From contig JANMLN010000192.1 in the NCBI GenBank assembly GCA_031372565.1, positions 1 through 64,000 of the forward strand: 64,000 nucleotides of DNA, written 5' to 3'. Numbering within the stretch: position 1 is the stretch's first letter; every line of letters starts with the position of its first letter. Below, one piece after another: positions 7,542 through 20,958 of this stretch. The translations under genes and the position numbers were made by a program. Source of the stretch: Gemmatimonadota bacterium. GTDB lineage: Bacteria; Gemmatimonadota; Gemmatimonadetes; Gemmatimonadales; Gemmatimonadaceae. Below the pieces are notes generated by a model that did not search any database, had not been told where the DNA came from, and saw nothing but the letters and a program-made list of their open reading frames with translations.

Positions 7542-9584
7542 TCAGGCCGGGCGGGTACGCGCCATCATCCGTTCGGTCAGGACGGTCGTCACCGCCATGA
7601 TCGTCTCTTGCGGGTTCACGCCGAGCGCCGTGGGCAGGAACGACCCGTCGAGGACGTAGAGCCCGCGCACGCCGTGCCGCTCGCCGTCCGGGGTGACGCC
7701 GCTCGTGCGCGGATCGGTGCCCATGCGCGCCGTGCCGTTCACATGCGCGCTGAACAGGGTCAGGTCGTTGGGCGCCGTGGACGCCGAGCGGATCTTGGCC
7801 AGGTCGGCTTCGGTGCGCACCCGCACGGGGGAGGTGTGCAGGGTGACGGCTTCGCGGGCGCCATTGGCCAGGTGCAGCCGAGCCGCAGCCACGATCCCTT
7901 CGGTCACGTGCTTGGCGTCGGCCGCGCCGAGGGTGTAGCGGATGTCGCTGCCGCTCTCGCCGCGCGGCTTGACGCTGCCGTTGGAGCGCTCGCGGTCAGC
8001 ACCGTCGCGGGTGAGCGCGATGATCGTGCCGACGTTCCGGAACTGCGTCATGAACTGGCGATGCTCCGCGCCGTACCCGGCCGTGGCGGCCGAGGCGATG
8101 GACGGGTGCATGGGCGGATTCTCGATCCAGAAGCCGTACCCGTTCGGGTCCGACTGGCTGAATTCGTCGCAGATGCTGGAAAGCGGGATGCCGGCGGCGC
8201 CGTACATCTCGCGGTCGTAGATGGCGGAGACGGCGGTGGTGGGGTGGACGCGCAGCCACTGCCCCACGCCGCCGCCACCCAGCCCCGAGCGCTGCAGGAT
8301 GAGCGGCGTCCCGATGGCGCCGCCGCTCAGGATGACGATGCGGGCGTCGATCGTGTGCTCGCCCGTGAGCGCCCCGGTGACCGGATCTCGGCGGCGCACG
8401 GTGACGCGCTTGCGCGGCACACCGGCGCTGTCGGGGCGCACGTCGAGCTTGACCACCGACGCGTCGGCGATGAGTGTCGCCCCGGCCTTGAGCGCGCGTG
8501 GCAGCCAGACCATGAGCGCGCCCTGCTTGGCGTCGTAGCGGCACCCGGCGCTGCAGAAGCCCGATCGCACACACCCCTTGGCGTTGATCATGGCGCTGCG
8601 AGCGCGCCAACCAAGCTTGGCCGCACCGTCGAGGGTGAGGCGATTGTTGGGGGAGTGCGCCTCGTCGGGGACGACCCGCGCGTGCACCTCCTGCTCGATG
8701 CGCTCGAAGACCGGGCGCATCTCGGCCGGCGACATCCCGGTGACGCCATGGCGCGCCGCCCACTCCTCGAGCACGTGGTCGGGGGTGCGCAGCATGATGA
8801 GCCAATTGACCGTCGTGCCGCCGCCCACCGTGGCGCCCTGGAAGAGCGAGACCGCCTGATCGCGCGAGGCGCGCAGTCCCTGGTCGGCGAAGAGGCGCTC
8901 GGTACCGATCGCTTCCTGCTCGTCGAAGGCGTCTCCCTGCACGAGGGAGCCCTCTTCGAGAATGGTCACCTGATAACCGGCTTCCGCGAGTCGGGCCGCC
9001 GCCACCGAGCCGCCCGCACCCGAGCCGACCACCAGCACGTCGGTGGTGGTGGGCAGTGTGTCGGCGGGCACGATGAGATGCCGCGCGCCGATCAGCGGCG
9101 GTGCTGCCATGGGATTCGCCACGCGCGCGATGGGCTCATCGTCGGACGGCGACCCGGCCATCGCGCCCTCCCACGAGACGCCCGGCGTTCGCTCGAAGAG
9201 CGGCCCGCGATACCCGATGTCGCGCTGCGCGGCCGGGGAGCCGTAGTAGGCGAAGAGCACCAGTCGGCGCACCGACTGGGCAATGGTGCGGAGGGGGGCG
9301 ACGCGCGACGCGAGCCACCCGTCGAGGAACCGGTCCTGCGCCTCGGGGGTGCGGCGGTGGAACGGCGTCGGGTTGCCCGTGGTGAGCAGCGCGGCGAGCC
9401 CCGAGCCGAAGATCGAGAAGGCGAGCGTGAGGTCGCCCGCGATCAGGGGGGGCATGCGCGCGATGCGTCGCTCGACGACGTCGGTCAGGGCGACGGCGGC
9501 CGGCCCCGGTTCGAAGGCCACAGGGACGATCCGGCGGGCGGCGGCATCGAGGGTGGCGCGCTGGCGGGCAGAGAGCGTAGTCAC
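7542..9584 (-). CDS. GMC-family FAD oxidoreductase (long-chain alcohol oxidase-like) with an N-terminal gluconate-2-DH-subunit-3-like domain
   Basis: VVGSGAGG dinucleotide motif, GATVGGGTTVN, GCVRSGFCSAGC, SAHVNGTARMG, GVNPQET. Confidence 0.9.
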   Translation of the reverse strand: MTTLSARQRATLDAAARRIVPVAFEPGPAAVALTDVVERRIARMPPLIAGDLTLAFSIFGSGLAALLTTGNPTPFHRRTPEAQDRFLDGWLASRVAPLRTIAQSVRRLVLFAYYGSPAAQRDIGYRGPLFERTPGVSWEGAMAGSPSDDEPIARVANPMAAPPLIGARHLIVPADTLPTTTDVLVVGSGAGGSVAAARLAEAGYQVTILEEGSLVQGDAFDEQEAIGTERLFADQGLRASRDQAVSLFQGATVGGGTTVNWLIMLRTPDHVLEEWAARHGVTGMSPAEMRPVFERIEQEVHARVVPDEAHSPNNRLTLDGAAKLGWRARSAMINAKGCVRSGFCSAGCRYDAKQGALMVWLPRALKAGATLIADASVVKLDVRPDSAGVPRKRVTVRRRDPVTGALTGEHTIDARIVILSGGAIGTPLILQRSGLGGGGVGQWLRVHPTTAVSAIYDREMYGAAGIPLSSICDEFSQSDPNGYGFWIENPPMHPSIASAATAGYGAEHRQFMTQFRNVGTIIALTRDGADRERSNGSVKPRGESGSDIRYTLGAADAKHVTEGIVAAARLHLANGAREAVTLHTSPVRVRTEADLAKIRSASTAPNDLTLFSAHVNGTARMGTDPRTSGVTPDGERHGVRGLYVLDGSFLPTALGVNPQETIMAVTTVLTERMMARTRPA

Positions 9585-9724
9585 GCGGGAAATCGTCGCC
9601 CGTGGAACGGCAAAAGTCCATGCCCCGCAACGGGTTCGCGAAGGCGTAACGCGCTCTTTCCGCGCCCCGTGGCAGGGGTGATATTGGCAGGGTAGGCCCC
9701 TGAGCGTCCTCTCTTCGGAGACCG

Positions 9725-11818
9725 ATGAGCACTATCGGCGGCGGCGAAAGTACCGCGCTCTCGCGCGAACTCGCCGACTTCCTGATCGAGTTCTCGATCG
9801 CGTTGCACAAGAACGCGATCTACCCTGCGGGCCATCCGCTCCTGTCGCAGGCGGTGCGCGGGCTGCTGTCGCGCATGGGGGCGTTGCTCAAGGAAGAGCG
9901 GGCGACGCTGTCGATCGGCGTTGCCCGCCGCCAGCTCATCATCGAAGGGGTCGCGACCGACCCGAACCATCCGCTGCTGCGTGAGCTCGCCCAGCGGCTG
10001 CATCGGCACCAGCTCGGCGCCGTGCGCTTCTCGGCCGGCATCACCAACGACGAGCTGAGCGATTTCCTCGCGACGGTGGCCGTGGATGCGTCGCGGATGG
10101 AGCTGCCGCTGGGGCTCGGCGATCCCGAAGTGCTCCAGCAGTGGCCGCACGCGCGGCTCTTTCCGCTGACATTCGAGCAGCTCGAACTGCTCGATGACGA
10201 CGGCAGCGAGGACGACGACGATCTGGACGGACGGAGCGCGGGCGGCGCGCGCTCGGCCGCGCTCTGGATCGGCCTCGCGCGCGCGGCACTGGCCAAGGAA
10301 GTGGCCAGCGATGAGGAGCTGCCGAGCACCGACCCTGTGGTCGTGGCACAGGCGATCGACGACCACGGCAAGGACGTGGCGTACGACCAGGTGGTGGTGG
10401 GCTACCTGCTGCAGATCGCCGAGGAGCTCAAGAGCAAGCAGGGGAAGGAAGCGGCGGCGCTGCAGAAACGCATTTCGCGCCTGGTGGCATCACTCAACCC
10501 GGCCACGCTGCAGCGGTTGATGGACATGAGCGGCGACACGGTGCAGCGGAACAAGTTCGTGCTGAACGCCACGGCCGGGATGTCGGTGGACGCGGTGGTG
10601 GACATCGTGCAGGCGGCGGCGGACACCTCGCGGCAGACGATCTCGCACTCGATGATGCGCTTGCTCACCAAGTTCGCGGCGCATGCGGAAATGGGGCAGG
10701 ACGTGGTGCGTCCGCAGATGGACGAGGCGCTGCGCGAGCACGTGCAGCGGCTGATCGGCGAGTGGTCGCTGGACGACCCCAATCCGGATGCGTACCGGGT
10801 GGCGCTCGAGGGGATGGCCAAGGCGTCGCCGATGTTCTCGGGGGTCGACCGGTATCCCGCGGAACCGCGGCGCATGGTGGCGATGTCGCTCGAGGTGCAG
10901 AGCGCGGGTGATGCCGTCTGGCGCGCCGTGGACGGCCTGACGCAGAACGGCGAGTTGGGCGTGGTCTTCGATCTGGCCGATCAGGCGCTGGAGAGCTATG
11001 CGCGCGACTCGATGCTCGAGTACATCGCGACCCCCGAGCGGCTGCACGCGCTGCTGGCGGCGGACAGCTTCGACCTGCCCCTGCTGGAGCGCGTGGTGAC
11101 GCGCCTCAAGCACGCGGCGGTGGAGCCGTTGCTCGACACACTCGAGATCGCGGACGATCGCAAGGCGGGCGCGCTGGTGGAGCTGCTGGCCTCGGTCGGC
11201 ATGGAGGCGGCGTCAACGATTCTGGTCCGGCTTCCCCTCTCGCGCTGGACGACGCAGCGGTTGCTGCTCGTGACCATTGCCCGGTTGCCGGTGTGGCCGG
11301 ACGGGTTCACGCCGCTGGACTATGCGCGGCATCCCGATGCACCGGTGCGGCGCGAAGCGCAGCGGATGATGTTCAAGGAGCCGATCCTGCGCGACGAAGG
11401 GATCAAGATCGGGCTGCTGGATGGCGACGAGCGCAACGTGTCGAATGCGCTGGGCGCTGCGGCGCGCGGCTGTCCGCCGGATGCGGTGCGCATCGTGATG
11501 GAGCGGATCGACGACAACTCGCTGTCCGAAGCGATCAAGCCGCTGGCGGTCAAGGTGGCGGCGAGCACGCGGAGTCCGTCGCTGCTGCCGTGGCTGCTGG
11601 CGCGCGTGGAGGGCAAGAAAGGGCTGTTCGGCCGCCGCCTGGCCGAGACGACCCCGCTGATGCTGGCCAGCCTCGAGGCCATCGCGCAGTTCTACGCCGA
11701 TCGTCCCGATACGGCCGACGTGCTGGCGCTGGCGTCCAAGTCGCGCGACGACGAGGTTCGTACAGCCATGACGCGCCGTGCGTCGGTGGCCATGCGCGCG
11801 ATCCAGGACCCGACATGA
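9725..11818 (+). CDS. Hypothetical helical (HEAT-repeat-like) protein
   Basis: GGAG RBS; long GC3-rich ORF; N-terminal YPAGHP domain; C-terminal repeats such as HPDAPVRREA and DGDERNVSNAL. Confidence 0.75.
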   Translation: MSTIGGGESTALSRELADFLIEFSIALHKNAIYPAGHPLLSQAVRGLLSRMGALLKEERATLSIGVARRQLIIEGVATDPNHPLLRELAQRLHRHQLGAVRFSAGITNDELSDFLATVAVDASRMELPLGLGDPEVLQQWPHARLFPLTFEQLELLDDDGSEDDDDLDGRSAGGARSAALWIGLARAALAKEVASDEELPSTDPVVVAQAIDDHGKDVAYDQVVVGYLLQIAEELKSKQGKEAAALQKRISRLVASLNPATLQRLMDMSGDTVQRNKFVLNATAGMSVDAVVDIVQAAADTSRQTISHSMMRLLTKFAAHAEMGQDVVRPQMDEALREHVQRLIGEWSLDDPNPDAYRVALEGMAKASPMFSGVDRYPAEPRRMVAMSLEVQSAGDAVWRAVDGLTQNGELGVVFDLADQALESYARDSMLEYIATPERLHALLAADSFDLPLLERVVTRLKHAAVEPLLDTLEIADDRKAGALVELLASVGMEAASTILVRLPLSRWTTQRLLLVTIARLPVWPDGFTPLDYARHPDAPVRREAQRMMFKEPILRDEGIKIGLLDGDERNVSNALGAAARGCPPDAVRIVMERIDDNSLSEAIKPLAVKVAASTRSPSLLPWLLARVEGKKGLFGRRLAETTPLMLASLEAIAQFYADRPDTADVLALASKSRDDEVRTAMTRRASVAMRAIQDPT

Positions 11819-13083
11819 CCCCGGCCGCGATCTTTCTCACGAACTTTGCGCAGGCGCTGAGCACGATGGTGCTCTACCGCGACGGGCATCCGGCACGCGA
11901 GCGTGCAACGGACAAGGCGTACGGGCGGCTGCGCGACCTCCAGTCCAAGGACGTGAAGCCGCTCTTCTCGTTCCTCGGCAACGAGGTCGTGTACGGCAAC
12001 GTCTCGATGCGGGAGTTGACGGACTGGGACTGGGGGACGCGGCTCGCCAATGCCGGGATCCAGCGGCTCGAGTTCGAGCCGGACGTGACGCGCGAGGATT
12101 TCGAGTATTTCCTCAGCGACGTGCTGGCGCGGCTCACGATGCAGGCGATCGACACGGCGGGAACGCGCACGGAGCGGCGTACCGGGATCAAGTTCGGCGC
12201 GATTGGCGTGCGGGGCGAGCAGGGGACGCTCAAGCCCGAGTCGCAGATGCTGCCGACCGCCACGATTGCCTACACGCTGGGCGAGGAAGCGGAGACGATC
12301 CGCTGGATGCACGACGAGGTGATGACCAAGGGGGAACTGCCGCTCATGGAAGCGGAGACCGTCGTGCGGTCACTCTCCATGGCGATGCACGGCGACAACC
12401 AGATCGTCATTCCGCTCCTGCAGCTGCGCGAGTTCGACGAGTACACCACGACGCATTCGCTCAACGTCTCGGTGCTGAGCATGGCGCTTGCCGAGTTCAT
12501 GGGGATGGGCGCCAAGGACGTGCGCTCCTTTGGCGTGGCCGGGCTGCTGCACGACCTCGGCAAGGTGCGTATCCCCAAGGACATCCTGAACAAGCCGGGC
12601 AAGCTGTCGGACGCGGAGTTCGCGGTCATGCGCCGACACCCGGTGGATGGCGCCAAGATCATCGTGGAGAGCGACCGGCAGCTGGACATCGCGGCGATCG
12701 TCGCCTACGAGCACCACATCATGCTCAACGGCGGCGGCTACCCCAGCATGCGGTTCCGCCGCGACACGCATCAGGCGAGCAAGATCGTGCATGTCTGCGA
12801 TGTGTATGACGCGTTGCGCACCAACCGTCCGTATCGCGAGGCGTGGGACGCGGAACGCGTCGTGAGCCATATCCAGAAGGGCGCGGGGCACGACTTCGAC
12901 CCCGACGTGGTCAAGGCGTTCACCGGGATGATCAACACCTGGGAGAAGCGCGTGGCGGTGGTCGACGAGAGCATGGAGCTCAAGGCGCCGTCGGCGGATC
13001 CGCACGCGGACCGCCAGCCGATCGCGCCGGGGGCGGCGCCACCGGTGCTCGCGCCGCCACCGCCGCCTCCCCATTCTTCCTGA
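11815..13083 (+). CDS. HD-GYP domain cyclic-dinucleotide phosphodiesterase
   Basis: ATGA overlap; DEYTTTHS, LLHDLGK, ILNKPGKL, EHHIMLNGGGYP, DVYDAL..RPYR motifs. Confidence 0.9.
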   Translation: MTPAAIFLTNFAQALSTMVLYRDGHPARERATDKAYGRLRDLQSKDVKPLFSFLGNEVVYGNVSMRELTDWDWGTRLANAGIQRLEFEPDVTREDFEYFLSDVLARLTMQAIDTAGTRTERRTGIKFGAIGVRGEQGTLKPESQMLPTATIAYTLGEEAETIRWMHDEVMTKGELPLMEAETVVRSLSMAMHGDNQIVIPLLQLREFDEYTTTHSLNVSVLSMALAEFMGMGAKDVRSFGVAGLLHDLGKVRIPKDILNKPGKLSDAEFAVMRRHPVDGAKIIVESDRQLDIAAIVAYEHHIMLNGGGYPSMRFRRDTHQASKIVHVCDVYDALRTNRPYREAWDAERVVSHIQKGAGHDFDPDVVKAFTGMINTWEKRVAVVDESMELKAPSADPHADRQPIAPGAAPPVLAPPPPPPHSS

Positions 13084-13141
13084 CGTCGCCTGGACGCGCG
13101 ACCCTGCCTCGCCACACGACCCACCGTCTCTCGAGCATTCC

Positions 13142-13717
13142 ATGGCCAATCACGCAAACGACAAGAAGGGCGCCGCCGCTGTCGACGCCGAGCCGACCCC
13201 CGAAAGTCTCGACGCCGTGCGGGATATCCTCTTCGGTGGCCAGATGCGGACCGTCGAGACGCGCCTGCGCAACATCGAGGACCGGTTCCAGCAGGAGTTG
13301 GAATCGCTGCGCGGCGAGTTCCAGAAGCGCGCGGCCGAACTCGACCAGTTCGCGAAGAAGGAGACGCAGGCGCTGCACGAACGGGTCGCGGCCGAGAACG
13401 ATGCGCGCGTACAATCGCTGCGCGAACTGGCGGGCGAAGTGAAGGACGCCTTCAAGCAGGCGAACCAGCGGCATGTCGCGCTCGAGCAGAGCACCTCGCT
13501 GTCCGATGCCGAGCTCCGCGATCAGCTCATCGCCCAGGCCAAGGCCGCCGCCGCCGAACTCAACCGGATTCACGAGAAGCTCTCGGCCGAGCTCGCCAAG
13601 TCGCACGCCGATCTCTCGCACGCGAAAACCGACCGCAGCCAGATTGCGGCGTTGCTCGGCGAGATGGCACAGCACATCGCGAACAACGCCGGCACGCCCA
13701 AGGGTCAGAAGGGTTAG
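13142..13717 (+). CDS. Coiled-coil hypothetical protein
   Basis: LDAVRDILFG start motif, E/K/Q/L-rich heptad-like body, KTDRSQIAALLGEMA end; 3 nt upstream of the OmpA gene. Confidence 0.8.
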   Translation: MANHANDKKGAAAVDAEPTPESLDAVRDILFGGQMRTVETRLRNIEDRFQQELESLRGEFQKRAAELDQFAKKETQALHERVAAENDARVQSLRELAGEVKDAFKQANQRHVALEQSTSLSDAELRDQLIAQAKAAAAELNRIHEKLSAELAKSHADLSHAKTDRSQIAALLGEMAQHIANNAGTPKGQKG

Positions 13718-13720
13718 CGG

Positions 13721-15634
13721 ATGGCTGATGTGACCGCGGCGTCGCGCGCGAGCGACGTGCCCCGCGGCACGGGCGCGGAGGCCACACTCACGCCACCGAG
13801 TGTGCCACTCGTGGACGGCGCACCGGTGCCGCTCGCGCCGTCGGCAGCGGCTGGGTCAGCCACACCGGCCGCCGACCCGCGCACCGTCGAGCTCGCCGAG
13901 CTTCGCCGATTGTTGTTGGGCGCAGAGCAGGCGCGACTCGACGAGCACGACCGGCGCATCCGCGACAACGAAATGAGTCCCGAGCACCTGGCATCACGAC
14001 TGCCCGAGGCCATCGTGCTGCGCGCAGGTCAGGACAAGCAGCTCGCGCGCGCGCTCGCGCCCACCGTGGAAGCGGCCATCAGCGAGTCGGTGCGGCGGAA
14101 GCCGGGTGAATTCGCCGACGCGATCTTCCCCGTGCTCGGTCCCGCCATCCGGAAGGCGATCGCGGAGACGATGGCCGAGTTGGTGGGGTCGATCAACCGG
14201 GCGATGCAGCACTCGTTCTCGGCGCGCGGGCTCTCGTGGCGCATCGAGTCCTGGCGCACCGGTGTGCCGTATGCACAGGTGGTCATCAAGCATGCGCTTG
14301 TCTATCGCGTCGAGCAGGTGTTCCTGGTGCACCGCGAAACGGGGCTCCTCCTCGCGCAGGCGCATCCGCCGCACCTGGAGGTGCCCGACGCCGATCTCGT
14401 GAGCGGCATGCTCACGGCCATCCGCGATTTCGTGGGCGATTCATTTGCCGGCGAGAAAGAGGTGGGCGGGCTGCGCACGTTCAGCGTGGGCGAGCTGACC
14501 GTGATGGTGGAGCAGGGACCACGCGCGCTGCTCGCGGCGGTCGTGCGCGGGCAAGCGCCGGAGTCGTACGTGCGTCGGTTACAGGAGACGATCGAAGGGG
14601 TACACGCGCAGTTTGCGAGTGTGCTCGCGGACTTCGACGGCGATACAGCGCAGTTCGGCCCGGTGCAGCCGTTGCTCGAGGATTGCCTCGTGACCGTGCT
14701 CGCGACCGATGCACCGGCGGGCACGAAGGTGAACACGACGCCGTATCTGATTGCGCTTGGTGCCGTGGTCGTGCTCACGCTGGCGTGGAGCACCTGGCAG
14801 ACGATGCGCTGGTCGCGCGTGATCGGTGCCTTGCGCGCGACGCCGGGGATCGTGGTCATGGAATCACAGCGCGGGTGGCGGACGCACACCGTGCGCGGGC
14901 TGCGCGATCCGGATGCGATCCCGCCCAATGCGTTGTTCGCGTCGGCCGGCTACGACAGTGTGCGCGTCGAGCAGCAGTGGGAACCGTACCTCTCCCTGGA
15001 ACCGTCGCTAGTGTTGAAGCGTGTGCAACGTCGACTCGGCGCTCCGCAGCCCGGCACCCCCACGTACTCGCTTCGCGGCGACACGGTGGTGGTGGGTGGT
15101 GCGATCGATGCGGCGTGGTTGGCGCGGGTGGCGCGGCGTACCGGTTGGCCGGCGGGGGTGGCGACCGCGGACGTTCGCTCGGCGGAGCCGATCGTGCCGG
15201 CGTCGCTTGCCGCGGTCGCCGACTCGATGACGTCGGTGCGGGTGCTCTTTGCGGCAGGGTCATCGGAACTGGACGGCGCGGCGCGGTCCGCCATACGCAG
15301 TGCGGCGCGACAGGCGCGACAGGTGGCCGTGGCGCTGGCCGCCGATGGTGTGGTCGCCACGGTGACACTGGCCGGTCGCGCCGACGTGACCGGGACCGAG
15401 GCGACCAATGCAGCGCTCAGTCGCGAGCGCGCCGACCGCGTTCGTGGCGCGCTGGATGCCGCACTGCGCGACGGCGCGGCCAAGGGGCCGGTCGTCCGCT
15501 TCGATCCGCGAGGACTCGGGACCGCCGAGCCGATCGCCGCCGGCGATTCCGTGGCTCGCGCTCGGCTGAATCGCAGCGTATCGTTTGGCATTCGCCTCGT
15601 GATCGACGCCCTGTCCGGAGCCCGGCCGCAATGA
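13721..15634 (+). CDS. Membrane-anchored OmpA-family protein with a cytoplasmic longin/roadblock-like domain
   Basis: Single TM segment (YLIALGAVVVLTLAW); C-terminal VLFAAGSSEL..GRAD..N..LSRERA..V..GLG..P..NRSV OmpA-like motif; N-terminal VFLVHRETGLLL..DLVSGMLTAIRDF. Confidence 0.85.
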   Translation: MADVTAASRASDVPRGTGAEATLTPPSVPLVDGAPVPLAPSAAAGSATPAADPRTVELAELRRLLLGAEQARLDEHDRRIRDNEMSPEHLASRLPEAIVLRAGQDKQLARALAPTVEAAISESVRRKPGEFADAIFPVLGPAIRKAIAETMAELVGSINRAMQHSFSARGLSWRIESWRTGVPYAQVVIKHALVYRVEQVFLVHRETGLLLAQAHPPHLEVPDADLVSGMLTAIRDFVGDSFAGEKEVGGLRTFSVGELTVMVEQGPRALLAAVVRGQAPESYVRRLQETIEGVHAQFASVLADFDGDTAQFGPVQPLLEDCLVTVLATDAPAGTKVNTTPYLIALGAVVVLTLAWSTWQTMRWSRVIGALRATPGIVVMESQRGWRTHTVRGLRDPDAIPPNALFASAGYDSVRVEQQWEPYLSLEPSLVLKRVQRRLGAPQPGTPTYSLRGDTVVVGGAIDAAWLARVARRTGWPAGVATADVRSAEPIVPASLAAVADSMTSVRVLFAAGSSELDGAARSAIRSAARQARQVAVALAADGVVATVTLAGRADVTGTEATNAALSRERADRVRGALDAALRDGAAKGPVVRFDPRGLGTAEPIAAGDSVARARLNRSVSFGIRLVIDALSGARPQ

Positions 15635-16137
15635 TCCAGAAGAAAGTGTGCATGGTCGGGGTCTTCGGCACCGGCAAGACCAGCCTCGTGCAGCAGTACG
15701 TGCACACGAAGTTCACCGACAAGTACCACAGCACGGTGGGGGTCAAGATTGACCGCAAGGTCGTGAACGTCGACGGCACCGATATCACGCTCGTCCTGTG
15801 GGATCTGGCGGGCCGCGACCCGCAGCAGGATGTGGGCTCGAGCTACCTCAAGGGGGCGCACGGCGTGATCTACGTGGGCGACGGGACACGCCGCGAGACG
15901 GTGTCGGAGCTGGACGACTTGCTCCGCGTGGCGACCGCGGCGGCCGGGCCCGTGCCAAGCGTGACAGCGATCAACAAGATCGACCTCACGGAGCAGTGGG
16001 CACTCACCCCCGAGGACTATCAGGCGCTGGTCAAGCGCGGCGGGCTGTTCCGCACGAGCGCCAAGACGGGTGAAGGGGTGGAGGCGATGTTCCTGCAACT
16101 GGCACGCTTCCTCACGGTACCGAAGGCGGGCGCATGA
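15631..16137 (+). CDS. Rab/Ras-like small GTPase (168 aa)
   Basis: ATGA overlap; G1 GVFGTGKT, G2 YHSTVGV, G3 WDLAG, G4 NKID, G5 TSAK. Confidence 0.93.
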   Translation: MIQKKVCMVGVFGTGKTSLVQQYVHTKFTDKYHSTVGVKIDRKVVNVDGTDITLVLWDLAGRDPQQDVGSSYLKGAHGVIYVGDGTRRETVSELDDLLRVATAAAGPVPSVTAINKIDLTEQWALTPEDYQALVKRGGLFRTSAKTGEGVEAMFLQLARFLTVPKAGA

Positions 16138-16964
16138 GCGCGATCTTCAGCGGCGGCATCGACGTCTTCGGTCTGTCGGACGTCGGTCGGAAGCGTACGC
16201 GCAACGAGGATCACTTCGTGATCGCGACGTTGCGCAAGGAGATCCTGCTGCGGCAGAGCAATCTCGCGGACACCTCGGTGTTTGACGCGGCGCGTGGTGT
16301 CGAGGCGCAGCTGTTGGCGGTGGCTGATGGCGTGGGCGGGCAGGCCGGCGGGGACGTGGCGAGTCGCACGGCCGTGACCGCGCTCGTGGGGTACCTGAAT
16401 ACCACGATGACCTGCTTCAACAATCTCGACGTGGATGCGGAGCACGAGTTTCTGGAGAAGCTCGAGGCCGGCGTGCACGCGGCACACCAGCAGGTGCGCG
16501 ACGCGCACGGCCGCGACAGCCGCCCGCCGGCGACCACACTCACGATGATCACGCTGCTCTGGCCGCGCGCGTATGTGGTGCATGTGGGCGATAGCCGGGC
16601 GATGTACTTGCACAACGGGTGGCTGCGTCCGCTGACGCGCGACCAGACGATGGGCGAGGCCATGGTCGATGCCGGTGCGATGACCGAGGAGCAGGCCGCG
16701 CGGTCGTCGCTCTCGCAGACGCTGTACAGTGCGTTGGGCGCACAGGACATGTTGCCGAGCGTGGGGCTCGTGGACTTTGCGGCGGGCGACGTGCTGCTGA
16801 TGTGTTCGGATGGCCTGACCAAGCACGTGAACGATACGCGGATCAGTGAAGTGCTGAGCCAGCCGTGGACCGCGGAGATGATGACGAAGACGCTGGTGCA
16901 GGACGCGCTCGAGGGTGGGGGCAGCGATAACGTGACGGTGATCGTGGCGCGGATGATCGGGTAG
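16134..16964 (+). CDS. PP2C-family Ser/Thr protein phosphatase
   Basis: ATGA overlap; DVGRKRTRNEDH, VADGVGG, HVGDSR, CSDGL and GGSDNVT motifs. Confidence 0.93.
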   Translation: MSAIFSGGIDVFGLSDVGRKRTRNEDHFVIATLRKEILLRQSNLADTSVFDAARGVEAQLLAVADGVGGQAGGDVASRTAVTALVGYLNTTMTCFNNLDVDAEHEFLEKLEAGVHAAHQQVRDAHGRDSRPPATTLTMITLLWPRAYVVHVGDSRAMYLHNGWLRPLTRDQTMGEAMVDAGAMTEEQAARSSLSQTLYSALGAQDMLPSVGLVDFAAGDVLLMCSDGLTKHVNDTRISEVLSQPWTAEMMTKTLVQDALEGGGSDNVTVIVARMIG

Positions 16965-16990
16965 CGTTGGCTAACACGATGTAGCACAAC

Positions 16991-17015
16991 AACTTGCACA
17001 AGAGGTGTGCAAGTT
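16991..17015. promoter_or_regulatory. Perfect 10-bp inverted repeat (terminator or operator) upstream of the VIT-ECF operon
   Basis: AACTTGCACA-agagg-TGTGCAAGTT followed by TT, in an AT-rich intergenic stretch. Confidence 0.5.
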
Positions 17016-17067
17016 TTCGATCGACCGACGTCTCCTTGGCGTCCCACCAACCCAAGGAGTTCGTCCC

Positions 17068-19311
17068 ATGCGTACATCCGTTCTCACCCTCGCGCTGGCC
17101 GGCGCGTCCCTCGCTCCGCTCGCCGCACGCCACGCCGACGCGCAGGGCATTGTCATCGATCGTCCGCCGTCGTGCGGTCCCACCCAGAACTGCGGTTTCG
17201 TACCCGGAGTGCCGCAGGTCGAGCGCGCCTCCAGCACGGTGCGCATCGACCTGGTCAACGGGGTCGCGCGCTACGAAGTCACCGAGACGTTCATCAATCG
17301 CGGCGGTCGCGTCGGCGAAGCCGACTACCTCTACCCGATGCCCAAGGGCGCCGCGTTCCAGGACCTCAAGCTCTCGATCAACGGCGAGCTGGTCAGCGGC
17401 GAAACGATGAACGCCCAGCAGGCCCGCCAGATCTACGAGCAGATCGTGGCCAAGCAGCGTGACCCCGCGCTCGTGGAATGGATGGGCTATGGCCTGCTCC
17501 GCACGCGCATCTTCCCGATCGCACCCGGTGAAGAGAAGAAAGTCGTCGTGCGCTTCTCGCAGGTGGCCGAACGCGAGGGCGATGCGCTGCGGCTCGACTA
17601 CTTCCGCGGGCCCACGACCAACGGGCCGCGGGAACGCTCCAACGCCGCACCGACCGGCCGCATGCGCTTCGTGCTGTCGTACAGCAACGACGCCCCGTAC
17701 GGCCGTCCCTACTCGCCGACGCACGACGTGAATCCGCGACGCGAAGGCGACAAGCAGGTGGTGGACATCGAAGGCGGCGCGCGCGAACTCACGGTCCTGC
17801 TCCCGGTGCGCACCGCCCGCGACGCCGCGATTGCCATGTTGCCGCAGGCCGAAGGTGGCGACGGCCGCTATGCCCTCGTGACGCTCACGCCCCCCGTCAT
17901 GAACGCGCGTCGCACCCCGCGCGACATGACGTTCGTGATCGACATCTCGGGCTCGATGAGCGGGCGAAAGCTCGAACAGGCCAAGGCGGCCGGCCGCCAG
18001 CTGCTGGCCACGCTCGGCGAGGGGGACCGGTTCCGCATCGTGCCGTTCGCCAGTGATGTGCGATCGTTCCGCGATGGTTGGAGCGATGCCACCAGGGATG
18101 AATTAGGGGCAGCACGCAACTATATCGATGGCCTCGAAGTGGCGGGCGGCACCAACATCATCGGCGCGCTCCGCGAAGCCACCCGGCTGCCCAGTGCGGA
18201 CGGACGGCTGCCGATCGTCATCTTCATGACCGACGGTGCGCCCTCCGTGGGCGAGCAGCGGCCTGCCGTGATCGCCGACTCGGCGCGCGCATGGCGCGGT
18301 GGTCGTCGTATGTTCACCTTCGGGCTCGGGAGTGATGTCAACGTGTCGCTGCTCGAGCAACTCGCCCTCTCCGGGCGGGGTACCGCACAGTTCGCGCGTC
18401 CAGAGGAGGATGTCGAGCGCATGGTCGGGATCACCGCGAGCCGCCTGATGGCGCCGATCGTCACCGACCTCCGCATCCATGCGGAGGGGGTGCGACTGCT
18501 GCGCACCATGCCGCAGGACGCGCAGGATCTCTTTGCGGGCCAGGACCTCGTGGTGCTCACGCAGTACGAAGGGACCGGGCGCGGTACGATCGTGTTCGAG
18601 GGGCGTACGTCGAGCGGCCCCGTGCGGTGGACGCAGAACGTGAACTTCCCGGACCGCGAGACGGGCAACGCCTTCGTGCCACGCCTCTGGGCCACGCAGC
18701 GGATAGGCTGGTTGGCAGCGGAGAAGCGCCGCACCAACACGACCGAGCTCGACAGCGAGATCCGCGGCCTCGGCGAGAAGTTCGGCATCCCGACCGAGTT
18801 CACCTCGTACCTGGTGCTCGAGCCCGGCATGGTTGCCAACCAGCCCGGCCTCATGGGCGACGTCCGTCGGGAAACGGTGAACCGCGTCGGCGCTGGCGCC
18901 GCTGCGGCAGCCGCTCCCGCGATGGGAGCCGAGTCGCGGTTCGACATGGCGAAGGCGGCATCGGCGCAGCGCGCGACCAAGAGCCTGGCCGCACTCGACG
19001 ACGCGTCGAACAGCATGGGCAGCGCAGACAAGAAGATGCGCTCGGGCTCGGGCCGCACCTTCGTGCTGCAGGGCGACAGCTGGACCGACACGCGCTATCG
19101 CCGCGATGCGAAGCTGGCCGTCATCAAGGTGAAGGGCTACGGCGAAGCGTACTTCGCCCTGCTCCGCGCGCTCCCGCAGCTCAAGGACGCGTTTGCGCTC
19201 GGTGACAAGGTGACCATCGTCGGAAAGGGACTCGTGCTCGAGGTGGCCCCCGATGGGGCGGCCGTGCTCGTCAGCGCGGATCTCGACCGGGTGCGCAAGG
19301 CCATCGAGTGA
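17068..19311 (+). CDS. Exported VIT and vWA domain protein
   Basis: AAGGAG RBS; signal peptide ending ADA-Q; VIT-like EVTETFIN..EADYLYPMP..RDPALVEW; MIDAS DISGS, GGTNI, MTDG; TEFTSYLV. Confidence 0.9.
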   Translation: MRTSVLTLALAGASLAPLAARHADAQGIVIDRPPSCGPTQNCGFVPGVPQVERASSTVRIDLVNGVARYEVTETFINRGGRVGEADYLYPMPKGAAFQDLKLSINGELVSGETMNAQQARQIYEQIVAKQRDPALVEWMGYGLLRTRIFPIAPGEEKKVVVRFSQVAEREGDALRLDYFRGPTTNGPRERSNAAPTGRMRFVLSYSNDAPYGRPYSPTHDVNPRREGDKQVVDIEGGARELTVLLPVRTARDAAIAMLPQAEGGDGRYALVTLTPPVMNARRTPRDMTFVIDISGSMSGRKLEQAKAAGRQLLATLGEGDRFRIVPFASDVRSFRDGWSDATRDELGAARNYIDGLEVAGGTNIIGALREATRLPSADGRLPIVIFMTDGAPSVGEQRPAVIADSARAWRGGRRMFTFGLGSDVNVSLLEQLALSGRGTAQFARPEEDVERMVGITASRLMAPIVTDLRIHAEGVRLLRTMPQDAQDLFAGQDLVVLTQYEGTGRGTIVFEGRTSSGPVRWTQNVNFPDRETGNAFVPRLWATQRIGWLAAEKRRTNTTELDSEIRGLGEKFGIPTEFTSYLVLEPGMVANQPGLMGDVRRETVNRVGAGAAAAAAPAMGAESRFDMAKAASAQRATKSLAALDDASNSMGSADKKMRSGSGRTFVLQGDSWTDTRYRRDAKLAVIKVKGYGEAYFALLRALPQLKDAFALGDKVTIVGKGLVLEVAPDGAAVLVSADLDRVRKAIE

Positions 19312-19826
19312 GTGCTGACGTCGAGCGTCTGTTCAAGACCTATCACGTGACGCTCGTGCGGTACCTGACGCGGCGTCTGGGCGATCGCGACTGGGCGGAG
19401 GAAGTGGCTCAGGAAACGTTCGTCCGGGCGCTGCGACAGGAGACCATCATGAATGAACGCGCCTGGATCTTTGCCGTGGCGACCAATCTCGTGCGCGATG
19501 AGGCTCGCAAGGATGCGCGGCGGCGGCGTCACCTCGAGCTGCTCCGCGCAGAAGCCGAGCAGGATGCTGAACCGGAACCCGAAGGCCTATCGGCTGAACG
19601 CGCCGAGGAAGCGGCGATGGCGCGCACGGCGCTCGACGCACTGGCTGAACGCGACCGGAACGCATTGTTGATGAAGGAAGAAGGGCTCGACTATCACGAG
19701 ATTGCCGCGGCGCTCGATCTGTCGTTCGGGAGCGTGGGCACCACGCTGGCCCGTGCGCGCCGCAGGCTCGCCGAAGCGTACGAAGCGCTCCAACGCGAAG
19801 GAGGACGCGGCCATGCCGCCAGTTGA
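19308..19826 (+). CDS. ECF RNA polymerase sigma factor
   Basis: GTGA overlap; AEEVAQETFVRA, AWIFAVATNL, GLDYHEIAAAL..SVGTTLARARRRL. Confidence 0.93.
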   Translation: MSADVERLFKTYHVTLVRYLTRRLGDRDWAEEVAQETFVRALRQETIMNERAWIFAVATNLVRDEARKDARRRRHLELLRAEAEQDAEPEPEGLSAERAEEAAMARTALDALAERDRNALLMKEEGLDYHEIAAALDLSFGSVGTTLARARRRLAEAYEALQREGGRGHAAS

Positions 19827-20958
19827 TGAGGGGATGATCCACGCCTGGCTCGACGGCGCCCTGAGCGCCGATGAGGCCGCGCGGATCGAAGCGCTGGTGG
19901 CGAGCGATCCCGCGTGGAGCGCAGCGGCCGCCGAAGCGCGCGGTCTGATGGCCGCGAGTTCGCGCATTCTGTCGTCGCTTGATGCGGTGCCGGCCAACGT
20001 GCTGCCTGCCTCGATTCCCACCGTGCGTGCAGCGCACGAAGCGCCACGCGTGACAGCAACGCCAAGGGTGACGACGCGTCGGTGGCGCACGCCACAGTGG
20101 GCAGCCGCGGCCACCCTTGTGATGGCCGTTGGCGCCGGCGTCTTGTGGCGCAGCACGCCGGAAGCGGAGCGGCCAGCGGTCGCGATCGCCACCGACGCGT
20201 CCAAGAGCGCTCCCGGCGCATCGGTCGCACCGGCCGCGTCGACCGCGCCAGTCGCGCCAGTCGCGCCAGCCACACCGAGCGTTGCCGCGCCCGCCGCTGG
20301 CCGTGCGAACGCGACGGAGCTCGCGAAGCTGGAGCAACGCGAAGCTCCCGCGGCAGTGGCGACGCGCGGTACGGCATCACCTGTGGCCGCGGCACCGAGC
20401 ATGCCCACCGAGGCGATCGCTCGTTCAGTACCCGAACCCGCCGCAAAGGCAGCCATGGCCGAGGCGGTGGCGGACGAGCGGGCAGAGAATGCGGTCGCGC
20501 TCACGGCGCGGGCACGCCGTACCGACGCGCCGATGGCCGCACGTGCGATGGCTGCCCCGGCTGCCGCAGCTACGATGGGTGCCATGGACGCGGCGGGTGC
20601 GAGCCAGTCGGTACGCGTGGTCACCCCCGTGTGCTGGACCGTGCGGTTGAGCGGCTGGACCCCACCGCCAACTTTCGTGGCACCGATCGGCGTCCTGCTG
20701 GACTCGACGCGCGCTGGCTCGGCACGCGAGGCGGTCGCGCTTATTGGGGGGGAGGCCCCGCCCGCCGCCAAGGGGCAGTGGACCGAGACGGCCGATTCGC
20801 TCCGCGTGACGGTTGATCGCGTGGTGCTGGGTTACACGCTGCGCGTGGCAATGGCGCGCAGCACGATGGCGGGCCGTGCTGCACTCGGCGACGCGGCGAC
20901 ACCGCTCAAGGCCACCGCCACGGCGACGATGCTGCCGTCGCGGTGCGCGGTGCCGTAG
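19813..20958 (+). CDS. Putative anti-sigma factor (single TM, Ala/Pro-rich linker)
   Basis: Overlaps the sigma gene; GGAGG RBS; DEGMIHAWLDGAL anti-sigma-domain-like N-terminus; WAAAATLVMAVGAGVLW TM segment. Confidence 0.8.
   Translation: MPPVDEGMIHAWLDGALSADEAARIEALVASDPAWSAAAAEARGLMAASSRILSSLDAVPANVLPASIPTVRAAHEAPRVTATPRVTTRRWRTPQWAAAATLVMAVGAGVLWRSTPEAERPAVAIATDASKSAPGASVAPAASTAPVAPVAPATPSVAAPAAGRANATELAKLEQREAPAAVATRGTASPVAAAPSMPTEAIARSVPEPAAKAAMAEAVADERAENAVALTARARRTDAPMAARAMAAPAAAATMGAMDAAGASQSVRVVTPVCWTVRLSGWTPPPTFVAPIGVLLDSTRAGSAREAVALIGGEAPPAAKGQWTETADSLRVTVDRVVLGYTLRVAMARSTMAGRAALGDAATPLKATATATMLPSRCAVP

Follow-up and report, generated by a model that had tools for sequence, protein, structure and literature searches.

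Four adjacent genes in a stretch of 64,000 nucleotides from a bacterium of the Gemmatimonadaceae (phylum Gemmatimonadota; assembly GCA_031372565.1, contig JANMLN010000192.1, positions 1 to 64,000, G+C content of ~68-70%; the whole stretch is called the window below) raise the question of what a Rab-like small GTPase does in the company of a membrane protein predicted to be anchored to peptidoglycan, and whether the Ser/Thr phosphatase encoded directly after it is its output. The genes are DUFY, DUFX:OmpA, Rup (the GTPase) and PP2C (the phosphatase) (Table 1). On balance, we favor the view that they are a lineage-specific version of the Group 1 Rup envelope cassette, in which an envelope-tethered platform regulates Rup, and Rup, through its switch surface, places or tunes the phosphatase.

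The original prediction had placed four plus-strand genes at 13142-16964, joined by a 3-nt gap and two ATGA overlaps, and both the positions and the junctions stand. The module is not an undescribed system, since it matches the Group 1 Rup cassette described by Wuichet and Sogaard-Andersen (2014, Genome Biol Evol 7:57; PMC4316618). According to the passages of that paper on Group 1, the gene order is DUFY, DUFX:OmpA, Rup and an output gene; the Rups are Rab/Ras-like GTPases without the G3 glutamine, DUFY is a cytoplasmic coiled-coil protein, and DUFX:OmpA combines an unknown domain, a membrane helix and an OmpA domain. The same passages describe the fourth gene as "typically" a GGDEF/EAL fusion or a histidine kinase, with an invariant glutamine in its N-terminal region, and they present Group 1 as a set with no characterized Rup member, its cassette being known from genomics alone. 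Compared with this description by gene order, domain content and sequence motifs, the cassette in the window is of the Group 1 Rup kind. The order DUFY-DUFX-Rup recurs (tblastn) in most of 80 related loci from at least eight phyla, so the gene set is more than a product of chance.

Rup belongs to the Pfam Ras family (94.5 bits), and its translation and alignment give the motifs G1 GVFGTGKT, G2 Thr35, G3 DLAGR, G4 NKID and G5 SAK. Its closest solved relatives are Rab4, Rab14, Rab23 and Rab1 (E ~1e-22). The catalytic glutamine of G3 is missing, with Arg62 at the position equivalent to Gln61, and a Phe stands at the position of Ras Gly12; with these two features, Rup should either hydrolyze GTP with the help of a partner or act as a slow switch. 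The G3 motif of the MglA type (TVPGQ or GTPGQ, as defined in the part of PMC4316618 on that class) is absent from Rup, which reads WDLAGR, and Pfam showed no stand-alone Roadblock gene in the cassette. The claim that this is a small-GTPase module of the Rup type and not of the MglA type, whose membrane partner is anchored to peptidoglycan, is supported. The N terminus, MIQKK(V/I)CM, is near-invariant in all 81 Rups (the window and the 80 loci) and in all phyla. It is unusual for strand beta1 to be so strongly conserved in a small GTPase; two residues of this segment, Q3 and K5, lie in the predicted interface with PP2C.

The product of the fourth gene matches Pfam PP2C_2 with 56.1 bits (cut-off, 24) and the NCBIfam Stp1/IreP model NF033484 with 163.8 bits, below its cut-off of 230. 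The alignment with the Stp1 model covers residues 15-272, so that there is no extra or adaptor domain. The best PDB sequence matches are PstP, tPphA, Stp1 and MspP, with E values from 2e-30 to 4e-13. Asp26, Asp65, Asp226 and Asp265 are invariant in the 24-25 Rup-linked PP2Cs compared, and correspond to the metal ligands in bacterial PP2C structures. PP2C is predicted to be a catalytically intact Ser/Thr phosphatase of the PPM family. It also has a conserved acidic helix at residues 99-111.

How general the association of Rup with PP2C is can be read from two surveys. A scan of one genome per species yielded 117 confirmed Rup relatives, and the best 80 were kept (L001-L080); their loci belong to Gemmatimonadota, Acidobacteriota, Verrucomicrobiota, Nitrospirota, Cyanobacteriota, Myxococcota, Pseudomonadota, Bacteroidota and other phyla. 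PP2C lies directly 3' of Rup in 26 of the 80 (L001-L026) and in none of the other 54 (L027-L080). A Pfam search of the 125 open reading frames (ORFs) downstream of Rup in 52 of the latter found no PP2C, and found histidine-kinase ATPase domains in 19 loci, class III cyclases in 7, GGDEF-EAL in 5 and sigma-54 activators in 4. The outputs in L027-L080, or small stand-alone proteins preceding them, start with one of two unnamed domains of ~140 residues, N1 or N2. With our own profiles, N1 was found in 25 loci and N2 in 40, and at least one of the two in 50 of the 54, and there was no match either in L001-L026 or, at E <= 10, among the 29,450 ORFs of the whole genome to which the window belongs. 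N1 and N2 appear stand-alone, fused together, or as fusions with modules of the kinase, cyclase, GGDEF-EAL, PAS or sigma-54 activator type, and neither has a Pfam match. Homology between the two was considered and could not be established (hhalign probability of 7.4%). N2 has a glutamine conserved at 90% or more and is probably the "N-term" domain of PMC4316618.

In a quick IQ-TREE phylogeny, the 27 PP2C-linked Rups make up one side of a branch with a value of 99 in the Shimodaira-Hasegawa-like approximate likelihood ratio test (SH-aLRT). This clade is mostly from Gemmatimonadota, with a few records labeled Acidobacteriota or Thermodesulfobacteriota. The second survey was an even set of 401 Gemmatimonadota genomes (Rup threshold, E <= 1e-25), in which Rup was detected in 34 genomes, all within 2 of 12 families. 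Forty places were fetched, covering 47 of 52 Rup matches; PP2C is present in 17 of them, directly after Rup in 16 and upstream of DUFY in one. The expectation that PP2C is kept beside homologous GTPases is therefore borne out by the neighborhoods, in 26 of 26 clade loci and in 17 of 17 phylum-sample places in which the Rup is at least 55% identical. When the flanks of the PP2C clade were clustered, only the four cassette genes recurred, the next cluster reaching 6 loci; the flanks are otherwise diverse (Pfam, L001-L013, 68 of 142 ORFs).

Some loci of the two surveys depart from the common layout. The one place with PP2C upstream, L094 (G333:C10, 2739-8018), is a hybrid with the order PP2C, DUFY, DUFX, Rup and a single N1+N2 ORF; its PP2C is 51% identical to that of the window, and its Rup has Lys in G3, with the rest of switch II resembling the non-PP2C type. 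This architecture may be an evolutionary intermediate. Tandem duplicate Rups follow DUFY-DUFX in L104, L105, L109, L110, L112, L114 and L116, all from Gemmatimonadota and mostly from one genus, and a tandem Rup is also found in the Pyrinomonadaceae locus L068 (8681-9181); none of these loci has PP2C and all have Glu at G3. In L010/L084 the matches to DUFX and PP2C are split across frames, possibly by frameshifts, decay or assembly errors.

The proposed interaction between the GTPase and the phosphatase came through a controlled complex prediction. Rup (27-row alignment) was modeled with PP2C (24-row alignment) in three runs, alongside three controls. The interface score ipSAE was 0.72, 0.66 and 0.71 (median, 0.71), against 0.00 for the best of the three controls. 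When the tool was calibrated, 116 of 157 solved complexes attained the mark, as did 2 of 215 mismatched pairs; this is only a rough guide here, our own alignments having been used. The runs agree in at least 87% of their contacts, and the partner has a predicted local distance difference test (pLDDT) value of 84 or more. The 18 PDB sequence relatives of PP2C are all stand-alone phosphatases, and no entry of a PP2C relative is found among the best 60 of the 493 solved relatives of the GTPase; since the PDB relatives of the two proteins share no listed entry, it is unlikely that the model was remembering a similar complex.

On the Rup side, the confident contacts are residues 3, 5, 28-41, 55, 65, 69, 71-72 and 75-77. 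They map to switch I, strand beta2 and switch II and thereby to a classical effector surface, one that is sensitive to the nucleotide state. On the PP2C side they are 99-101, 104, 107, 160-169, 179-180 and 209-214, with strand 209-213 modeled as pairing with Rup 38-40; the four catalytic aspartates are not among them. In bacterial PP2C structures, these segments flank and touch the flap subdomain. Rup-linked PP2Cs show little or no variation in strand 211-214, in which the three PP2C paralogs of the genome differ from them. Conserved positions not shared with the paralogs amount to 4 of 6 at the interface versus 23 of 92 elsewhere (one-sided Fisher P of 0.047, a weak test).

Several residues change together with the output. 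At the G3 position that follows DxxG, 26 of the 27 PP2C-linked Rups have a basic residue (24 Arg, 2 Lys) and one has Gln; among the 54 remaining Rups, 46 have an acidic residue (35 Glu, 11 Asp) and 8 have Thr, Ala, Ser or Gln, but none has a basic one. The phylum sample gives the same picture: all 17 PP2C-linked Rups have R/K at this position, and all 30 others have E/D. The strictly clade-specific Rup positions, 34, 42, 62 and 77, are all in or beside the switches; at position 34, the PP2C clade has Ser and other Rups have Thr. In DUFX, residue 252 (14474-14476), located in the Roadblock-like domain described below, is basic (Arg) in 89% of the PP2C clade; outside this clade, 94% of sequences have an acidic residue there. 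Rup 62 and DUFX 252 reverse their charge in the same direction and are therefore not complementary to each other. We infer that the two residues point toward the effector, formerly the N1/N2 domains and now a PP2C bearing an acidic helix (99-111). All these charge changes are found in one clade and possibly reflect one historical event.

The two upstream genes would supply the envelope part of the system. A DUFX homolog lies upstream of Rup in 75 of the 80 loci, and a DUFY homolog is at the same position in 61, cyanobacterial ones included (both by tblastn); many of the misses are contig ends. DUFY has no Pfam family above threshold, only weak sub-threshold matches to helical apolipoprotein families, and its sequence suggests a putative cytoplasmic, helical protein of the coiled-coil type. 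No hydrophobic segment with a Kyte-Doolittle mean of 1.6 or more over 19 residues was found in Rup, DUFY or PP2C.

The cytoplasmic part of DUFX was modeled with AlphaFold2 (AF2) from 68 sequences, among which the domain is conserved. The mean pLDDT is 68.7; in the C-terminal alpha/beta part, blocks are mostly at 66-94, with one loop block at 48. The model has long helices followed by an alpha-beta-beta-alpha-beta-beta-beta-alpha domain, for which the top Foldseek matches in the PDB are to MglB (1j3w and 3t12, E 2e-4), followed by TRAPP, Ragulator and Mon1-Ccz1 subunits (overall range, E 2e-4 to 5e-3). No Pfam Roadblock match was found in DUFX, OmpA being its sole Pfam family at E <= 0.01. Roadblock/longin platforms serve small GTPases as GTPase-activating proteins (GAPs), guanine nucleotide exchange factors (GEFs) or scaffolds.

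The periplasmic part of DUFX gave a model with a mean pLDDT of 93.6. Its C-terminal domain resembles YfiB, Pal, the OmpA C-domain and MotB (Foldseek, E ~1e-7). By sequence, the Pfam OmpA score is slightly below the gathering score of 27.2, and the NCBIfam models YiaD (E 3e-8) and YfiB also match. D190, G193, N198 and R205 (numbered in the periplasmic piece) are invariant in 39 sequences and include the Asp and the Arg of the peptidoglycan motif. The C terminus of DUFX is thus an OmpA-like domain that is predicted to bind peptidoglycan. The modules preceding it had no Pfam BON match at E <= 0.01, and the periplasmic part has a weak whole-length match to the two-domain protein Rv0899 (2l26, template modeling [TM] score of 0.27).

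In the arrangement that we favor, DUFX would be tethered to peptidoglycan by its periplasmic OmpA-like domain and, according to its sequence and predicted fold, would cross the inner membrane once, presenting a helical region and the Roadblock/longin-like domain to the cytoplasm, probably together with DUFY. From its fold, the Roadblock-like domain would act as a GAP- or GEF-like docking and regulatory platform for Rup. In one of its nucleotide states, Rup is predicted to bind PP2C through switch I, beta2 and switch II, and a signal from the envelope might in this way gate the location or the activity of the phosphatase, whose targets would be substrates of the many Hanks-type kinases encoded in the genome. 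The direction of signaling, the GAP or GEF activity and the phosphatase substrates are what we infer in this scheme, along with two points of the original prediction, namely that a landmark controls the GTPase switch and that the output is dephosphorylation. More tentatively, and with the balance tilted against it, Rup could directly gate the PPM phosphatase by its switch surface, with the Roadblock platform, the GTPase and the phosphatase forming one charge-matched assembly in which Glu62 became Arg, and residue 252 went from acidic to basic, when the effector was replaced.

A number of observations weigh against these proposals. The 80 loci were seeded with patterns from the Rup of the window itself, which favors close relatives; the PP2C-linked loci are one clade, so that the co-occurrence counts are not independent events, and several places of the phylum sample are the same records as L001-L026, so that the two samples are not independent either. 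In L015 and L086 (G331:C10), the Rup-PP2C pair is found with no detectable DUFX or DUFY in the 6-8 kb upstream (the genome of the latter, G331, contains another Rup locus, L118, which is of the E type and has DUFY-DUFX). The complex score expresses the confidence of a model and is not a measurement, and the comparison with paralogs rests on three proteins of one genome. The Rup surface (Q3, K5, T35-D41, S71, Y72 and G75) is equally conserved in Rups without PP2C, and for this reason its conservation does not single out PP2C; it may equally be used by the Roadblock domain. Of the clade-specific Rup residues 34, 42, 62 and 77, only 77 counts at the interface, which is no enrichment (P of 0.43), and Arg62 is not among the confident contacts. 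Finally, the DUFX model is of moderate confidence overall, and its likeness to Roadblock is one of fold only (E 2e-4, target-normalized TM score of ~0.6).

The same contacts could be read in the opposite direction, with Rup as the substrate: a Hanks-type kinase would phosphorylate the switch region and PP2C would reverse this, by analogy with PPM1H acting on Rabs phosphorylated by LRRK2. We regard this as unlikely, although it has several points in its favor. The predicted interface spans switches I and II, including the invariant Ser71/Tyr72 and Thr35, the Ser34 of the PP2C clade is replaced by Thr in other Rups, and the genome has ~60 kinase-like places; moreover, PPM1H dephosphorylates Rab switch 2 with docking through its flap (PMC8567228). 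However, aspartates 26, 65, 226 and 265 are outside the confident contacts, so the modeled pose is not a substrate pose, and Rups lacking a PP2C conserve Ser71/Tyr72 and Thr35 just as well. Nor is a kinase conserved beside the cassette: tblastn over all loci gave Hanks-type kinase matches in 4 of the 26 PP2C-clade loci, at varying distance and strand.

We give little credence to PP2C being an input or feedback element that dephosphorylates the cytoplasmic region of DUFX, or DUFY, with Rup merely bringing it there. Such a role would suit the N-terminal extension of the window DUFX, 59 residues rich in Ser, Thr and Pro, and the charge of DUFX 252, which shifts along with the change of partner; in the hybrid L094, PP2C is kept together with an N1-N2 output and is there not simply the output. 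The extension, however, is not conserved, homolog alignments beginning near residue 45-60, and the Rup-PP2C pair occurs with no DUFX nearby in L015 and L086.

The original prediction had also suggested a link to cyclic di-GMP (c-di-GMP) turnover through the HD-GYP gene upstream, which would then play the role that GGDEF-EAL outputs have elsewhere. The gene does lie on the same strand, 58 nt before DUFY, and a simple scan of the gap gave no promoter-like site (sigma-70-type consensus only) and no terminator-like site on the plus strand; GGDEF-EAL outputs are indeed found in 5 of the 52 non-PP2C loci analyzed and are also named in the Group 1 passages of PMC4316618. The link is nevertheless not supported and we consider it very improbable, since HD-GYP and its 697-amino-acid (aa) partner adjoin the cassette in only 2 of the 80 loci, the two closest relatives (L001 and L002), plus L081, apparently the same contig as L001, and the N-terminal 200 residues of HD-GYP are unmatched by the N1 and N2 profiles. 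That PP2C is a mere neighbor, functionally unconnected to the GTPase, is hardly credible: bacterial PP2Cs are common and the genome has at least five further PP2C-like places, but here the gene overlaps Rup by ATGA, stays adjacent to it in all 26 clade loci of the first survey and in 16 of the 17 places of the second, amid flanks in which every other gene changes, and yields a complex prediction that passed its controls.

Table 1. Positions of the cassette genes, of the parts of DUFX and of the upstream neighbor in the window
Feature	Position	Strand	Details
HD-GYP gene	11815-13083	+	Pfam HD_5, 77.3 bits; neighbor outside the conserved cassette
DUFY (putative coiled-coil gene, CC)	13142-13717	+	191 aa; stop TAG, then a 3-nt gap (cgg)
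DUFX:OmpA	13721-15634	+	637 aa; TGA at 15632-15634 overlapped by the Rup ATG at 15631 (ATGA)
DUFX, Roadblock/longin-like alpha/beta domain	14270-14629	+	residues ~184-303; AF2 model and Foldseek
DUFX, membrane segment	14729-14794	+	residues 337-358; Kyte-Doolittle maximum 1.74, sole segment at 1.6 or more
DUFX, periplasmic alpha/beta modules before the OmpA-like domain	14816-15193	+	two small modules; AF2 model
DUFX, OmpA-like peptidoglycan-binding domain (binding predicted)	15200-15604	+	Foldseek, motif residues, Pfam OmpA 25.8 bits
Rup	15631-16137	+	168 aa; TGA at 16135-16137 overlapped by the PP2C ATG at 16134 (ATGA)
PP2C	16134-16964	+	276 aa; stand-alone, intact, fourth gene

Beyond the cassette, the start of the HD-GYP gene overlaps the stop of the 697-aa gene upstream (ATGA, 11815-11818), the pair spanning 9725-13083. 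The 697-aa protein has no Pfam or NCBIfam family. The two proteins look alike by eye at their N termini, but a shared domain is unsupported (BLASTP E of 1.1). A promoter and terminator scan of 9400-17300 gave no promoter-like site, with the sigma-70-type consensus as the only promoter model, and three terminator-like sites versus 2.7 expected by chance. Downstream, 17068-20958 codes for a VIT-vWA protein, an extracytoplasmic function (ECF) sigma factor and a zf-HC2 anti-sigma-like protein; the GTG start of the sigma factor (19308) overlaps the stop of the vWA gene, and this group is found beside the cassette only in L001/L081.

Among bacterial GTPases, Group 1 Rups come nearest to the eukaryotic Rab, Ras, Rho and Ran, of which they have been proposed as the source. 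The PP2C version is the simplest form of their cassette, with four small genes, no adaptor domains and a soluble, easily assayed enzyme, and it offers a specific, falsifiable interface prediction and two positions whose charge is swapped along with the effector. Should Rup indeed gate PP2C, the charge reversal would fit the acidic helix of the phosphatase, and the state of the envelope would be linked to Ser/Thr signaling by a route not known in bacteria, the first prokaryotic relay from a GTPase to a Ser/Thr phosphatase. It would also offer a way into the action of Roadblock platforms on Rab-like GTPases and would be a prokaryotic parallel, or bacterial counterpart, of the cross-talk between Rabs and PPM1H.

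Among known systems, the Group 1 cassettes of PMC4316618 share with the window a Rab/Ras-like single-domain GTPase without the G3 glutamine, an adjacent protein that in the window is putatively of the coiled-coil type, DUFX:OmpA and a fourth signaling gene. They differ in that the fourth gene of the window is a stand-alone PP2C without the invariant-glutamine N-terminal domain, and in that its G3 residue is basic, not acidic. The words "PP2C" and "phosphatase" did not turn up in the main text of that paper or in a search of three of its four supplementary files, Gemmatimonadetes is not represented among its 27 Group 1 rows, and a full-text literature search found no paper on the PP2C variant and no characterized Group 1 Rup. 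What is new here is the PP2C output, the basic G3 residue and the absence of N1/N2 adaptor domains. A reading as a conflict or defense system was set aside, the relevant passages of an eLife 2020 paper being about other GTPase systems.

The two parts of the MglA/MglB polarity switch of Thermus thermophilus and Myxococcus xanthus also combine a bacterial Ras-superfamily GTPase with a partner of Roadblock fold. However, Rup is Rab-like, has a normal DxxG and is non-MglA by the classification given in the corresponding part of PMC4316618; in addition, the Roadblock-like domain of DUFX lacks a Pfam Roadblock match and shares its chain with a membrane anchor and a domain predicted to bind peptidoglycan, and its GAP role is putative. 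The actinobacterial conservons CvnA-D are likewise four-gene cassettes with a small GTPase, a Roadblock protein, a membrane sensor and a signaling enzyme, but in the passages of PMC4316618 that deal with them the GTPase is of the MglA type, the sensor is a histidine kinase, and neither an OmpA anchor nor a PP2C is part of the set.

In human PPM1H, as in the predicted complex, a phosphatase of the PP2C family contacts a GTPase of the Rab type. PPM1H dephosphorylates Rab switch 2 and docks its Rab substrate through the flap (PMC8567228), and it has a second, allosteric site for nonphosphorylated Rabs that regulates the enzyme and helps to localize it (PMC12528898). Two of the readings discussed above thus have a precedent in PPM1H. 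Unlike the bacterial pair, which is encoded by overlapping genes and whose interaction is only predicted, PPM1H has a 110-residue flap insert and an amphipathic helix. With the bacterial phosphatases PstP, tPphA, Stp1 and MspP, the PP2C of the window shares the catalytic fold and the metal-binding aspartates; it differs from them in scoring below the Stp1/IreP cut-off, in having no paired kinase gene, and in the clade-specific strand 211-214 and acidic helix 99-111 that it brings to the predicted interface with the GTPase.

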